Part shown: positions 3,371-10,152 of the stretch, piece by piece
Layout: the number at the start of each line of letters is the position of its first letter
Position numbering within the stretch: the first letter of the stretch is position 1
Source of the DNA: a virus
Lineage: Duplodnaviria; Heunggongvirae; Uroviricota; Caudoviricetes
Reading direction: 5' to 3' (one strand)
DNA: 10,152 nucleotides
Virus record (IMG/VR): IMGVR_UViG_2534681939_000019
The notes under the pieces: generated by a model
What the model saw: the letters and a program-made list of their open reading frames with translations, nothing else
Told to the model about the DNA's origin: nothing
Database searches by the model: none
Program-made: the position numbers and the translations under genes

Positions 3371-3726
3371 GCGACCTTATTATTCATGCGCGGTATTGTC
3401 GCCGTATTCCTGCATTAACAGAGACCGCAGCCCGACCGGGAGAATCCTCTGCGCGAGTGTGCGGGGATAATCAAAAACGATACACACCGGGGTTTACCGC
3501 GTTAACGGAGCGCGGCGTTGTCCCCTCATGGTCGCTGGTCCGGTGCGATGGTGGAAGAAGCCGGATGTTTATCACTATTAATTGATAACACAGAAATGGA
3601 TTCATTGGTTTTCAGCACGTTTTTGTATTCGTATTATTGAACATCTGTTTATTTTACTTTTAACATATTGATAATAAAAAGAGCTGTAAATCATTAGATG
3701 AGTCGATTTTGTCCGGGGAAGTTCAA

Positions 3727-3879: not shown

Positions 3880-4001
3880 TAACAAATAATTTTCTGTGTT
3901 TTTTCAGGCTATCCCGTCAGACGGGAAGCCTGTACTGCCGGGGGACGAATGGAAAACTGATGTGTCCGGTAAACTGTGTGTTCTTGTGAACACCATGTTA
4001 C

Positions 4002-4184
4002 TTAATTAATGTAATTCATACCCGAACGCTCTGTTGACAGCCTTCTTCTGCAGGCTTCAATAACCCACGCTGAAAAGTTACCGGAACCTTTATGTTCAAG
4101 GGCGATATTGATCTGTTCAATCATGTGATTGGGGAAACGGATATTGCGGATTGTGGTTCTGCGGGTCCGGTTTTTCGATGACAT
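4002..4184 (-). CDS. Small ribbon-helix-helix-like DNA-binding protein (YlcI/YnfO DUF3950-like)
   Basis: 60-aa minus-strand ORF MSSKNRTRRTTIRNIRFPNHMIEQINIALEHKGSGNFSAWVIEACRRRL...: basic N-terminus, a beta-strand-like RNIRF, then two helices. SD AGAGGAAAG lies just upstream of the ATG on the minus strand. Resemblance to K-12 prophage YlcI/YnfO is from memory. Confidence 0.6.
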   Translation of the reverse strand: MSSKNRTRRTTIRNIRFPNHMIEQINIALEHKGSGNFSAWVIEACRRRLSTERSGMNYIN

Positions 4185-4225: not shown

Positions 4226-4768
4226 ATGGCTGTGCTTCGTACGTTACCGGGCAGAATCAAAACTCTGAACACCCGGCGGATAAATGTCCTGAGGGGGGAA
4301 CAGCGTCGTGTCAGTGGCAGTGCCCGGGTTTCCCTCAAACGTCGTATCTGGCGGAGGGATGCCGGACACTGTTGTCTCTGTAGACGCGTGGTTGACCTTC
4401 GTGACAGTGAACTCGATCACCGCATTGCACTTCAGTTCGGTGGTGGTAATGAGGAGACGAACCTCTGGACCCTCTGTACTGAATGCCATCGCCAGAAGTC
4501 AGCGAGTGAAGCGGCGAGTGGTATGCCTGATCCGACGTTGCCTGAGCTTCCTGATGGCACGCTCAGGGCCGACGGAATCACTCGGCCTGTGACCACGACC
4601 CGGGGGGGGATCATCCGGCGAAAAAAAACGATCGCCCTGGACACCGCGCCCCCTCTCACGCAGAGAAAAAATTCCCGTTTCAGGGCAGTTAACATGTTAA
4701 CTGGCTGCCCGGGCATTTTTGCGGTTTTTATCTTTATTATTCAGTTTGTTGTGCGGAAAAAATGTTAA
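4226..4768 (+). CDS. HNH endonuclease (terminase-associated, HK97 gp74-like) with an unusually long C-terminal tail
   Basis: HNH motif HCCLCRRVVDLRDSELDHRIALQFGGGNEETNLWTLCTECHRQK; SD GAGGA 7 nt before ATG 4226; directly upstream of terS. The last 60-80 codons run through G8 and A8 homopolymers and into the palindrome array, so the true stop is uncertain. Confidence 0.75.
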   Translation: MAVLRTLPGRIKTLNTRRINVLRGEQRRVSGSARVSLKRRIWRRDAGHCCLCRRVVDLRDSELDHRIALQFGGGNEETNLWTLCTECHRQKSASEAASGMPDPTLPELPDGTLRADGITRPVTTTRGGIIRRKKTIALDTAPPLTQRKNSRFRAVNMLTGCPGIFAVFIFIIQFVVRKKC

Positions 4769-5447: not shown

Positions 5448-7105
5448 TACCTGTATGGAGCACAGCCTGCCCGGACTGGGCAGAGCGCCTGAAAAAGGGG
5501 CTGTCGATTATTCCGGATCCGATTTATCCGGACGAGGCCGCACATGCCCTGGCGATTTTTAAACAACTGCGGATTGTGGATGCACCTGGTAGCCCTACGT
5601 TCGGGGAGTCCTGTGCACCGTGGGTGTTTGACCTGGTGGCGGCCCTGTTTGGCTCCTACGATGCGCAGACCGGTGTACGCCATATCAAGGAAGTTTTTAT
5701 CCTTATCCCCAAGAAAAACAGCAAGTCCACGCTGGCCGCGGGGATCATGATGACTGCACTGTTACTGAACTGGCGGCAGGCGGCGGGTTACACGATTCTG
5801 GCCCCGACTGTGGAGGTGGCGGCCAACGCCTTCAACCCTGCCCGGGATATGGTACGACGGGACGATGATCTGGATGACCTCTGCCAGGTACAGACCCATA
5901 TCCGGACCATCACCCACCGGGTGACGGACACCACCCTGAAGGTGGTGGCAGCCGATCCGAATACGGTGTCCGGTATCAAGTCCGTGGGTACGCTGATTGA
6001 TGAGTTGTGGCTGTTTGGCAAGCAGTGCAAGGCGGAGGACATGTTACGTGAAGCCATAGGCGGCCTTGCCTCCCGCCCGGAAGGGTTTGTGGTGTATACG
6101 ACCACCCAGTCGAATGAACCGCCCGCCGGGGTGTTCAGACAGAAACTGCAGTACGCCCGGGATGTGCGCGACGGCAAAATTCATGATCCGCACTTTCTGC
6201 CGGTGATATTTGAACACCCTCCTGAAATGGTGGAAAGCGGGGCTAACCTGCTGATGGAAAACCTCGCCATGGTCAATCCGAATCTCGGCTATTCAGTGGA
6301 TGAGGCCTTTCTGTACCGGGAGTACCGTAAAGCCCGGGAAGCCGGTGAAGAGACATTCCGGGGGTTCATGTCAAAACACGCCAATGTGGAAATTGGTCTT
6401 GCCCTGCGCTCTGACCGCTGGGCGGGGGCTGATTTCTGGGAAGAGCAGGGCCGTTGTATCAGCCTGGACGATATCCTGCGTCGTGCTGATGTGGTGACGG
6501 TGGGGATTGACGGCGGAGGGCTGGATGATCTGCTGGGGATGTATGTGATTGGGCGTGACCGGGAGACCCGCGAATGGCTGGGCTGGGGCCATGCCTGGGC
6601 GCATGGAACCGCGGTGGTCAGACGGAAGAGTGAGGCATCCCGTTTTCAGGATTTTGTGGCCTGTGGAGACATGACGATTGTCCGTCGGGTCGGGGATGAC
6701 ACGGCGGAAGTGGCGGAATATGTGCGTCGCATTCATGAGGCTGAGTTACTGGACCATATCGGTATTGACCCGTCAGGTGTGGGGCAGATTCTGGATTCAC
6801 TGGCGGAAGCCGGGATCCCCGACGGAATTGTTGTGGGGATAAGCCAGGGCTGGAAGCTGGGCGGGGCCATTAAAACCACCGAGCGCAAACTGGCTGAGGG
6901 AGTACTGGTGCATGGTGGTCAGCCACTGATGGCCTGGTGCGTTGGCAATGCCCGGGTGGAGCCTAAAGGTAACGCTATCCTTATTACCAAACAGGCCAGC
7001 GGACGGGGGAAAATTGACCCGCTGATGGCGCTCTTCAATGCGGTCTCCCTGATGTCCCTTAACCCGGAACCGAAAAAGAAAGAATATGCGGTTTTTTTCA
7101 TATAA
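5444..7105 (+). CDS. terL: Terminase large subunit (ATPase plus nuclease)
   Basis: 553-aa ORF; P-loop-like LIPKKNSKST near the N-terminus, acidic patches in the ATPase region, C-terminal nuclease region with VTVGIDGGG and DPSG. Translationally coupled to terS. Confidence 0.9.
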   Translation: MIPVWSTACPDWAERLKKGLSIIPDPIYPDEAAHALAIFKQLRIVDAPGSPTFGESCAPWVFDLVAALFGSYDAQTGVRHIKEVFILIPKKNSKSTLAAGIMMTALLLNWRQAAGYTILAPTVEVAANAFNPARDMVRRDDDLDDLCQVQTHIRTITHRVTDTTLKVVAADPNTVSGIKSVGTLIDELWLFGKQCKAEDMLREAIGGLASRPEGFVVYTTTQSNEPPAGVFRQKLQYARDVRDGKIHDPHFLPVIFEHPPEMVESGANLLMENLAMVNPNLGYSVDEAFLYREYRKAREAGEETFRGFMSKHANVEIGLALRSDRWAGADFWEEQGRCISLDDILRRADVVTVGIDGGGLDDLLGMYVIGRDRETREWLGWGHAWAHGTAVVRRKSEASRFQDFVACGDMTIVRRVGDDTAEVAEYVRRIHEAELLDHIGIDPSGVGQILDSLAEAGIPDGIVVGISQGWKLGGAIKTTERKLAEGVLVHGGQPLMAWCVGNARVEPKGNAILITKQASGRGKIDPLMALFNAVSLMSLNPEPKKKEYAVFFI

Positions 7106-7130
7106 CCCTGTTCACACTGTAACCATCACG

Positions 7131-7155
7131 AACCGCTCCGGCGGTTTTTTATTTT
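7131..7155 (+). terminator. Small hairpin plus U-tract between terL and the protease gene (possible attenuator)
   Basis: AACCGC (7131-7136), loop TCCG, GCGGTT (7141-7146), then TTTTATTTT; overlaps the protease SD AGGAGG (7157-7162). Confidence 0.35.
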
Positions 7156-7167
7156 CAGGAGGCTGAT

Positions 7168-7746
7168 GTGACTCTTAAACGGGCCTGTTCCCTGCTGACG
7201 GTGAAATCCTTCAGCGAGGATGAACGGGTGATCACCGGGATTGCGTCAACGCCTTCTCCGGATCGGGATGGTGACATCCTGGAGCCGGAGGGGGCGGAGT
7301 TTGGCTGTGCGATCCCGTTTCTCTGGCAGCATGACTATTCCCGTCCGGTGGGCCAGTGTACGGTACGCCGGGTCAGTGAAGGTCTGGAAATCACGGCAAC
7401 ACTGGTGAAGCCCGTACCGGATATGCCGTCGCAACTGGCTGCCCGGCTGGATGAGGCCTGGGCGGCCATTAAGACCGGGCTGGTCAGGGGGCTGTCCGTG
7501 GGCTTCCGTCCCCATGAATACACCTCTCTGGACGGAGGCGGACTGCATTTTCTGCGCTGGGAACTGATGGAGGTGTCTGCCGTCACCGTGCCCGCGAATG
7601 CGGAATGCACCATCCGGACCATTAAATCTTACGACCGCCCGTTTTCTGCCGCGTCCGGCAACCGGAAACCGGTGGTGAAAATCGCATCTTCTGCCGGCGC
7701 TGCGGCACAGTCAACAACCGCTTTTCATAAGGAAAAGACAGAATGA
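7168..7746 (+). CDS. HK97-family prohead protease (peptidase S78/U35)
   Basis: GTG 7168 with AGGAGG 5 nt upstream; VITGIASTPSPDRDGDILEPEG ... FLWQHD ... GLSVGFRPHEY ... MEVSAVTVPANAECTI is the typical motif order of the HK97 protease family. Confidence 0.85.
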   Translation: MTLKRACSLLTVKSFSEDERVITGIASTPSPDRDGDILEPEGAEFGCAIPFLWQHDYSRPVGQCTVRRVSEGLEITATLVKPVPDMPSQLAARLDEAWAAIKTGLVRGLSVGFRPHEYTSLDGGGLHFLRWELMEVSAVTVPANAECTIRTIKSYDRPFSAASGNRKPVVKIASSAGAAAQSTTAFHKEKTE

Positions 7747-7812
7747 ATATTGGCGAACAGATAAAAGTTTTGAAACAAGCGTGCGGCGCTGGCAGCCTCC
7801 CTTGAGGAGGTC

Positions 7813-9102
7813 ATGACCAAAGCCGCAGAGGAAGGGCGCACGCTGGATGTGGAGGAGGAAGAGCATTACGACAACACCGCAGCGGAAATCCGTCAGGTGG
7901 ATGCGCACCTGAAGCGCCTGCGTGAACTGGAAGCCGGTAAGGCCGCCACGGCGCAGCCGGTGAAACAGGCCGGTAACGGGAATGTGGCCGCGGTGGCTTC
8001 TGCGCCGGTGATCCGTGTGGAGCAGAAACTGGATAAGGGGATTGGCTTCGCCCGCTTTGCCAAATCGCTGGCTGCGGCTAAAGGCGTCCGATCTGAAGCC
8101 CTGGAAGTGGCCCGTCGTCAGTATCCGGATGACAGTCGTCTGCATCATGTCCTGAAATCGGCAGTGGGCGCAGGGACCACCACGGATCCACAGTGGGCAG
8201 GCAGCCTGTCTGAATATCAGGAATACGCACAGGACTTTATTGATTACCTGCGTCCGCAGACCATTATCGGGCGATTTGGTCAGGGCGGGATCCCTGCACT
8301 TCGTCAGGTGCCATTCAATATCCGCGTGCACGCCCAGGTGTCCGGCGGTGCTGCCGGCTGGGTGGGGGAGGGTAAGGCAAAACCCCTGACGAAGTTTGAT
8401 TTTGAATCCATCACCTTCAGTCATGCGAAGGTGTCGGCCATTGCGGTACTGACGGAAGAACTGATCCGCTTTTCCAGTCCGGCAGCTGATGCACTGGTCC
8501 GTAATGCGCTGGCAGAAGCGGTGGTGGCGCGTCTGGACACAGACTTTGTGGACCCGAAAAAAGCTGCAGTGGCAGATGTCTCCCCGGCGTCCATCACCCA
8601 TGATGTGAAGGGCACGGCATCAACCGGTAACCCGGATGCGGATGCCGAGGCCGCGTTTGGCCAGTTTGTGACGGCAAATCTGCAGCCCACCGGTGCTGTC
8701 TGGCTGATGTCCAGCACCAATGCCCTGGCACTGTCCATGCGTAAAAATGCGCTGGGTCAGAAGGAATATCCGGACATGACCCTGCTGGGCGGGATCTTTC
8801 AGGGGCTTCCGGTGATTGTCTCCCAGTATGTGGGTGACCAGCTGGTGCTGGTGAATGCCCCGGATATTTATCTGGCGGATGACGGCGGCGTGGCAGTGGA
8901 TATGTCCCGCGAAGCATCACTGGAAATGCAGTCTGAGCCGACCGGCGACAGTACCACGCCGTCCCCGGTGGAGCTGGTTTCCATGTTCCAGACAGGCAGC
9001 GTGGCCATCCGTGCGGAGCGCTGGATCAACTGGCGTCGTCGCCGTACTGCGGCGGTGGCGGTGATCACCGGAGTGAACTACGGCAGTGCGTCCGGCGGCT
9101 GA
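7813..9102 (+). CDS. HK97-fold major capsid protein; the true N-terminus probably starts at ATG 7743 in another frame (apparent frameshift)
   Basis: 429-aa ORF with a coiled-coil-like N-terminal delta region (EIRQVDAHLKRLRELEAG) and Gly/Ala-rich capsid body, placed directly after the protease. ATG 7743 overlaps the protease stop (ATGA) and encodes MNIGEQIKVLKQ before a frame change near 7773-7776. Confidence 0.85.
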   Translation: MTKAAEEGRTLDVEEEEHYDNTAAEIRQVDAHLKRLRELEAGKAATAQPVKQAGNGNVAAVASAPVIRVEQKLDKGIGFARFAKSLAAAKGVRSEALEVARRQYPDDSRLHHVLKSAVGAGTTTDPQWAGSLSEYQEYAQDFIDYLRPQTIIGRFGQGGIPALRQVPFNIRVHAQVSGGAAGWVGEGKAKPLTKFDFESITFSHAKVSAIAVLTEELIRFSSPAADALVRNALAEAVVARLDTDFVDPKKAAVADVSPASITHDVKGTASTGNPDADAEAAFGQFVTANLQPTGAVWLMSSTNALALSMRKNALGQKEYPDMTLLGGIFQGLPVIVSQYVGDQLVLVNAPDIYLADDGGVAVDMSREASLEMQSEPTGDSTTPSPVELVSMFQTGSVAIRAERWINWRRRRTAAVAVITGVNYGSASGG

Positions 9103-9116
9103 GTCTGATAAGGAGG

Positions 9117-9138
9117 ACGGGAGGCGTGCGCCTCCCGT
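9117..9138 (+). other. GC-rich 22-bp palindrome / stem-loop immediately downstream of the major capsid gene
   Basis: ACGGGAGGCG (9117-9126) and CGCCTCCCGT (9129-9138) are perfect reverse complements around a 2-nt centre; no U-tract follows. Confidence 0.45.
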
Positions 9139-9146
9139 AACAGGTT

Positions 9147-9368
9147 ATGGCAAAGATCCGATATCTGCAGGGCACGCATGATGCCCGGCCCGGGGATATC
9201 CGGGATGTCGCACAGCCGTGTGCGGAGGTGCTGGTTCGCCTGAGGAAGGCGGAGTACATCACAGCGCGACGTCCGGCGGGTCAGAAAAAGAAACATGATG
9301 CGGAGCATAGCGAATGTGGAACTTTTTGCGACGAACCCGAAAAAACCAGAAATCAGGACGTGATGTAA
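9147..9368 (+). CDS. Hypothetical small protein (73 aa) between capsid and portal genes
   Basis: Track ORF MAKIRYLQGTHDARPGDIRDVAQPCAEVLVRLRKAEYI...; weak SD; overlaps the predicted portal start by about 55 nt, so it may be shorter or not real. Confidence 0.35.
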   Translation: MAKIRYLQGTHDARPGDIRDVAQPCAEVLVRLRKAEYITARRPAGQKKKHDAEHSECGTFCDEPEKTRNQDVM

Positions 9369-10152
9369 AAGAGGCGGGCTGGACCAGCCTGTTTCAGGCG
9401 GTGGCTGAGCCCTTTGCCGGCGCCTGGCAGCAGGGTGTGAAAGCCGATCCGGAAAGTGTCCTCTCCTTTCATGCGGTGTTTGCATGCATTTCGCTGATAT
9501 CCCAGGATATCGCCAAAATGCGGCTGCGTCTTATGCAGACGGATGCGCATGGGATACGCAGGGAAACGCGCCGGGGGGATATTGCCCGCCTCTGTCGTCG
9601 TCCCAACGCCCAGCAGAACCGCATCCAGTTTTTTGAACTGTGGCTGAACGCCAAACTGCGTCATGGCAATACGGTGGTGCTGAAAATCCGTAATGCCCGG
9701 GGGCAGATCAAAGAACTGCGTATTCTGGACTGGAGCCGGGTTGAACCTCTGGTGGCGGATGACGGCGAGGTGTTCTACCGCATCACACCGGACCGGAACT
9801 GCGGGATCACGGAGGCGGTGACGGTGCCTGCCAGGGAAGTGATCCACGACCGGTTTAACTGTTTTTTTCATCCGCTTATAGGACTGCCGCCGGTGTATGC
9901 CGCCGGGCTGGCGGCCACGCAGGGGCATCATATTCAGGAAAATTCGACGTCTTTTTTCAGAAATGGCGGCAGGCCGTCCGGGGTGATTGAGATCCCCGGC
10001 AGTATTACGGAAGAAAATGCGAAAAAACTGAAGAGCAACTGGGACAGCGGGTATACAGGCGAAAATGCGGGGAAAACGGCCATTCTGAGCAACGGGGCAA
10101 AATACAACCCCACGACGTTTTCACCTGTGGATGCGCAGACGGTGGAACAACT
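9314..10152 (+). CDS. Portal protein (HK97-family), 5' part; continues beyond the window end
   Basis: Frame is open from ATG 9314 to the window end with no stop: MWNFLRRTRKNQKSGRDVKEAGWTSLFQ ... SFHAVFACISLISQDIAKMRLRL ... FFRNGGRPSGVIEIPGSITEENAKKLKSNWDSGYTGENAGKTAILSNGAKYNPTTFSPVDAQTVEQ. The FRNGxRPSG and ENAGK blocks are characteristic of portal proteins. Confidence 0.85.
   Translation, partial: MWNFLRRTRKNQKSGRDVKEAGWTSLFQAVAEPFAGAWQQGVKADPESVLSFHAVFACISLISQDIAKMRLRLMQTDAHGIRRETRRGDIARLCRRPNAQQNRIQFFELWLNAKLRHGNTVVLKIRNARGQIKELRILDWSRVEPLVADDGEVFYRITPDRNCGITEAVTVPAREVIHDRFNCFFHPLIGLPPVYAAGLAATQGHHIQENSTSFFRNGGRPSGVIEIPGSITEENAKKLKSNWDSGYTGENAGKTAILSNGAKYNPTTFSPVDAQTVEQ

Follow-up and report, generated by a model that had tools for sequence, protein, structure and literature searches.

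A protease–capsid gene split across two frames in a draft prophage contig of Escherichia coli DEC3F: very probably an assembly artefact

A prophage sequence from Escherichia coli raises the question of whether a major capsid gene can begin in one reading frame and continue in another, immediately behind the gene for its prohead protease. The window, meaning the whole stretch of 10,152 nt analysed here, is the complete contig AIFJ01000017.1 of GCA_000249355.2, a draft assembly of E. coli DEC3F. We examined the junction as deposited, compared it with its relatives and asked which of several explanations accounts best for the split. The reported two-frame split is not a real feature, and the gene beneath it belongs to a family that has many members and is already annotated.

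The junction in the deposited contig

The protease ORF (7168–7746, plus strand, 192 codons) has a GTG start with AGGAGG 6 nt upstream, and is ended by the TGA at 7744–7746. Overlapping this stop, the ATG at 7743 opens a short ORF of 20 codons (7743–7805, plus strand), which reads MNIGEQIKVLKQACGAGSLP and ends at the TGA at 7803–7805. It begins with seven codons (MNIGEQI) that natively open the capsid delta-domain module, and the rest is out of frame. The capsid ORF (7813–9102, plus strand, 429 codons, ATG start) encodes what remains of the delta (scaffold-like) domain, together with the HK97-fold capsid domain. In the frame of 7744, stops occur at 7744, 7762 and 7771 (stop-ILANR-stop-KF-stop), and the frame then opens at 7774 as NKRAALAASLEEVMTKAAEEG, which is the capsid frame (NKRAALAASLEEVM...). 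The first-pass annotation had described the short ORF with its overlapping ATG and its stop, as well as the +1 frame open from 7774, and all of these coordinates were confirmed. The protease and capsid ORFs share a frame, given that 7168 and 7813 are both 1 mod 3, and the scrambled part amounts to only 27 nt (7747–7773). Across 7700–7830, the window allele carries GACAGAATG...CAGATAAAAG...TTGAAACAAG. With stops at the three positions above, an uninterrupted ORF of about 645 codons with both domains is absent from the deposited window.

Searches against Pfam matched the product of 7168–7746 to Peptidase_S78 (PF04586; 37.4 bits against a cut-off of 21, E=3.6e-9) and that of 7813–9102 to Phage_capsid of the HK97 type (PF05065; 53.1 bits against a cut-off of 24.2, E=4e-14). 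By profile match, the former is assigned to the Caudovirus prohead serine protease family (HK97 gp4-like) and the latter to the HK97-type major capsid protein family. About 190 residues separate the junction Met from the start of the PF05065 match, and their composition fits a helical delta domain. In GenBank, the two products appear as EHU94480.1 ('caudovirus prohead protease family protein') and EHU94479.1 ('structural protein'), both labelled [Escherichia coli DEC3F].

A GAGGAGG had been noted 2 nt before ATG 7813, and it is indeed found there, at 7804–7810. This motif is part of the codons Leu-Glu-Glu-Val and, among the divergent DNAs compared, it is present only in the E. coli versions and not in the non-E. 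coli relatives. The suggestion attached to it, that the capsid protein starts at ATG 7813 and lacks about 24 residues, is the one adopted in GenBank (EHU94479.1, 429 aa), but this start follows from the errors described below.

Upstream of the junction, between terL and the GTG start (7120–7170), a GC-rich stretch is followed by a T-run (GGCGGTTTTTTATTTTCAGGAGG) and has the look of a terminator. The T-run carries a private shortening by one T at 7145.

Intact relatives and three missing bases

A search with the 901 bases around the site brought up 93 phage records at 90–99% identity, including phages 2851, BP-4795, YYZ-2008, the Stx2 phage 1717 and many Stx1a and Stx2 phages. A 351-base query found 2,928 places in 1,251 of 5,426 complete E. 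coli genomes, and all the E. coli matches listed are 354 nt long, against 351 nt in the window. In the relatives, phage 2851, BP-4795 and PPyecE_EH1910 among them, the region is one ORF of 1,938 nt encoding 645 aa, annotated as 'major head protein/prohead protease' or, by PGAP, as 'phage major capsid protein' (645 aa). More generally, protease and capsid protein lie in one ORF of 644–650 aa in every relative checked. The TGA at 7744–7746, which the first-pass annotation took for the end of the protease gene, is part of the artefact; the relatives read through this position, and their fusion had been missed.

Alignment to the relatives located three 1-nt deletions in an error patch at 7727–7785 (plus strand), which also contains a private T>G change at 7741 and mixed paralogue alleles at 7727 and 7741. 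The first deletion removed a C by 7739 (GACCATAATG to GAC-AGAATG, together with the T>G), the second a T by 7762 (GATTAAAAG to GATAAAAG) and the third an A in the run at 7773–7775 (GAAAAC to GAAAC). The three deletions fall within 35 nt, and because their net change is −3, the capsid frame is the same as the protease frame. Putting back all three bases yields a single ORF of 645 codons, 8 aa off the closest copy, whereas putting back only the T and the A yields an ORF of 453 codons from 7743 reading MNIGEQIKSFENKRAAL....

The native junction peptide is ...HKEKTIMNIGEQIKSFENKRAALAASLEEVMTK..., the capsid module begins MNIGEQIKSFENKRAAL, and IKSFENKR is encoded in a single frame. An extra base in the A-run around 7773–7775 had been offered as the explanation of the split. 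There is a small indel at that place, but the run is one base short rather than one base long, and a single error does not suffice, with the T by 7762 and the C by 7739 missing too and the native peptide differing from a join of MNIGEQIKVLK to NKRAAL. Homologues were also to be inspected for a start at MNIGEQ, and they show that the start of the capsid module is native: Met is conserved in 114 of 114, and they do not begin at the residue corresponding to M7813. Judged from sequence, the real gene is predicted to encode an S78 prohead protease, a variable linker and an HK97-type capsid protein with an N-terminal delta domain.

The portal gene 3' of the capsid gene (about 9314–10152 in the window) is marked 'frameshifted' by PGAP in several prophage copies of finished genomes (L003 9807–11145, L004 9813–11151 and L007 9836–11201). 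One such 'frameshifted' portal spans about 2.6 kb, apparently a portal merged with the next ORF. The portal is intact (753 aa) in the 493/89 copy L008, phage records annotate a portal of 1,365 nt, and a 222-nt ORF overlaps the portal start.

A chimeric contig and the explanations of the split

A published strain table lists AIFJ as 'DEC 3F (493/89)', O157:NM (PMC4959244). Among complete E. coli genomes, the finished 493/89 genome (NZ_CP038412.1) is the best match to the whole window (98.6%). It is also the top match for every longer segment tested (351–10,152 nt), at differing prophage copies (2,573,530; 1,280,071; 2,282,696) and never at 100%. This genome holds six copies of the capsid region, in paralogous lambdoid prophages. 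Our base-by-base reading covered three of the six (L003, L007 and L008), each of which carries an intact ORF of 645 or 641 aa; the other three were excluded indirectly, by a search with an 84-nt probe (7716–7799). This probe had no match in the 20,395 records of the 5,426 complete E. coli genomes, the finished 493/89 genome included, and it cannot seed on intact relatives, as the exact stretches common to both are all shorter than 28 nt. Likewise, the exact 429-aa protein was found on one contig only among indexed assemblies, AIFJ01000017.1 itself. An exact 62-mer across the junction had no match in IMG/VR or in GTDB species representatives, which shows only that the allele is not widespread.

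Aligned to the three 493/89 copies read, the window has 1,943 variable columns at which one or more of them shares its base, and a mosaic built from the three would require at least 38 switches, many at single-base granularity. Across 6700–10152, the alleles of the three copies alternate, often at successive variable sites only a few bases apart, and for 8450–9550 the best match in any complete genome is 97.8%. The junction patch follows the same pattern, since the window has the copy C (L008) alleles at 7727 (C) and 7741 (G) within a background of copies A and B, and the first base was lost exactly where these alleles mix (7727–7741). The second and third deletions are homopolymer shortenings at positions where all three 493/89 copies compared agree.

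Relative to the same three copies, the window has 30 private changes, comprising 18 indel events and 12 substitutions. The same 18 small indels are seen against three independent relatives (493/89, FORC_042 and phage PPyecE_EH1910). For 20 of the 30 events another lies within 30 nt, where 4.7 would be expected, and none of 20,000 random placements reached 20. Outside the capsid patch, 15 private indels of 1–2 nt lie at 557, 1538, 2398–2417, 2597, 2695–2783, 3854, 3971–4008, 4583–4602 and 7145. They break or scramble the genes for holin (557), lysozyme (1538), a small ORF (2597) and Rz (2695/2714/2783), as well as the end of the HNH gene (4583/4596) and 20 nt of the antirepressor gene (2398/2406/2417). 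None of the 787 matches in complete genomes carries the private substitutions at 3608, 3693 or 3845. The other 493/89 copies were considered as their source and rejected, the best identity of the segment in any complete genome being 99.0%, and they, like the indels, are probably errors of the consensus. With the capsid patch counted, there are five indel clusters, four of which alter the length by exactly ±3 (+3, +4, +3, +3 and −3). Plain random error would not predict this pattern, which is only marginally unlikely by chance (roughly P=0.05, post hoc). Several private insertions lie outside homopolymers and so escape a simple pyrosequencing-type model. Taken together, the comparison indicates a collapsed-paralogue consensus of merged reads, unlike any real prophage copy.

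We therefore consider it very probable, on sequence grounds, that the two-frame split arose from sequencing or assembly errors in a low-quality draft contig of collapsed repeats, and that the real gene is one ORF of 645 codons. Reads from the six paralogous 493/89 prophage copies would have been merged by the draft assembler into a 10,152-bp consensus. Where the paralogues diverge (7727–7741), the hybrid consensus may have lost one base, and the nearby homopolymers TT and AAAA may each have been under-called by one base. The first deletion creates the TGA at 7744–7746, and the second and third scramble the frame and then bring it back. Automatic annotation then called a 192-aa protease and a 429-aa capsid protein from the first downstream ATG (7813). 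A caveat is that laboratory stocks of 493/89 could differ. Along this line, the three deletions could be real mutations in a decaying prophage copy of the DEC3F stock, leaving the fused gene either as a pseudogene or as a separate protease and a capsid protein made from ATG 7813 without 24 residues. Such decay would suit the abundance of defective lambdoid prophages in O157-lineage genomes, the wide occurrence of a naturally truncated 189-aa protease remnant and the GAGGAGG in front of ATG 7813. We nevertheless regard it as improbable, given that the allele is missing from the finished 493/89 genome and from all 5,426 complete E. coli genomes and that the contig is a per-base paralogue chimera rather than a real copy. 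The private changes, moreover, are richer in indel events than in substitutions and cluster together, whereas natural paralogue divergence is nearly all substitutions, and three frameshifts in the same direction within 35 nt form an implausible mutational path.

Two further explanations appear far less credible still. A programmed ribosomal +1 frameshift near the A-run might join MNIGEQIKVLK to NKRAAL and so produce the capsid protein, and the A/T-rich run (AAAAGTTTTGAAAC) where the two frames overlap is the sole point in its favour. The two-frame arrangement is confined to one draft contig and was seen in no relative examined, the full-length homologues listed being all continuous ORFs, and the native peptide IKSFENKR is encoded in one frame; programmed frameshifting was rejected on the absence of the arrangement from relatives, and we consider it extremely unlikely. 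Stop-start overlaps of the ATGA type between protease and capsid genes are found in many HK97-like phages, and the two genes might accordingly be naturally separate here, with only the two downstream deletions being errors. With the T and the A restored, a 192-aa protease gene would indeed end in a TGA overlapping the ATG of a 453-aa capsid gene, and databases hold a few stand-alone capsid proteins of 455 aa. The chance of this arrangement appears just as slight, considering that the gene is fused in the three 493/89 copies read and in every other relative checked, that the missing C sits in a patch of mixed paralogue alleles, and that two of the five stand-alone capsid calls had their contigs read and both proved to be artefacts.

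These five stand-alone proteins, of 455 or 456 aa, start with MNIAEQ, MNLAEQ or MIIAEQ. Of the two whose contigs were read, one (L009) starts 43 nt from a contig end and is a contig-end truncation. The other (L010, 455 aa) comes from an error-prone long-read assembly (ERZ1332392, tig00000001) in which the terminase and portal genes are also fragmented; at 2480–2503, one A was lost from the linker A-run, which places a TGA over the capsid ATG (ENA ERZ1332392). The first codons of the capsid module are ATGAAT, so the loss of any one linker base is enough to create a TGA that overlaps the capsid ATG.

The 189-aa protease (P0137, KZO73662.1) was likewise considered as a natural split and set aside, as it is a deletion remnant with no bearing on the junction. 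This truncated S78 protease has 70 contigs listed (L015–L018, 3001–3570 among the loci), in which terS, terL and the protease gene run straight into genes for tail fibre and tail-fibre assembly, the mark of a widespread defective prophage.

If the split is, as we think very probable, an artefact of assembly, the two deposited proteins, EHU94480.1 (192-aa protease) and EHU94479.1 (429-aa 'structural protein'), owe their truncation to it. AIFJ01000017.1 contains about 30 private errors in 10 kb and is unfit for the inference of alleles, pseudogenes or frameshifts. More broadly, a scan of raw sequence can take consensus errors in collapsed repeats for recoding or gene decay.

A candidate nested start and comparison with known systems

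The sole biological lead from this locus is a possible nested internal start in the widespread protease–capsid fusion gene. A Met stands four residues before EQIK in 114 of 114 homologues that carry the EQIK motif, with the consensus Met-Asn/Ile-Ile-x-Glu-Gln-Ile-Lys. These homologues come from E. coli, Salmonella, Enterobacter, Klebsiella, Serratia, Kosakonia, Pantoea, Citrobacter and others and, where complete, are nearly all fusions of 643–650 aa. The linker before the junction Met is hypervariable (HKEKTI, KKGNNT, IKGKN, QKGKAT, KIRKDS). At the DNA level, the candidate start (7730–7745, plus strand) consists of an AAGGA Shine–Dalgarno (SD)-like motif (7730–7734) and the conserved internal ATG at 7743, with equivalent junctions at 8221–8236 in L003 and in L011–L014. 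An AGGA-type SD-like motif lies 6–10 nt upstream of the junction ATG in six of six divergent DNAs, and no other internal ATG has such a motif in every one of them.

The chances appear evenly balanced that the fusion ORF is a nested pair, yielding the full-length protease–capsid protein and a free capsid protein translated separately from MNIGEQ. The full-length fusion would bring a few protease copies into the prohead as capsid subunits, and the SD-like AGGA and ATG at the junction would drive abundant translation of free capsid protein. If true, a nested start would solve the stoichiometry problem of a protease–capsid fusion. We found no description of protease–capsid fusions or of their internal initiation in the searchable literature, although they may already be described.

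The closest known counterpart is the fusion gene of lambdoid Stx-type and related prophages (2851 gp60, YP_009909243.1; BP-4795 ORF56, CAD88857.1; YYZ-2008; 1717), at 98–99% nucleotide identity to the window. Both have PF04586 and PF05065, and in both the gene lies directly after terS and terL and before the portal gene. The neighbourhood in the window (HNH, terS, terL, fusion gene, small ORF, portal) is that of Stx-type prophages. The window differs in that it is without three linker bases and reads as two ORFs, which we attribute to assembly error.

In HK97, gp4 and gp5 belong to the same protein families and follow the same order, protease then capsid, but they are two genes, whereas here there is one ORF. 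Charged residues, Ala and Leu abound in the N-terminal module that follows the junction Met (MNIGEQIKSFENKRAALAASLEEVMTKAAEEGRTLDVEEEEHYDNTAAEIRQVDAHLKRLRELE), a composition expected of a delta or scaffold domain such as that of HK97 gp5. In the C/Nu3 system of lambda, a protease–scaffold fusion is accompanied by the scaffold made from an internal in-frame start. We use this system as a working analogy only: in both cases a protease is fused 5' of an assembly module with an SD-like motif and an ATG at the boundary, an arrangement that could supply the abundant partner separately. Unlike in lambda C/Nu3, the downstream module of the fusion gene is the capsid protein itself, and its internal start is a candidate only.
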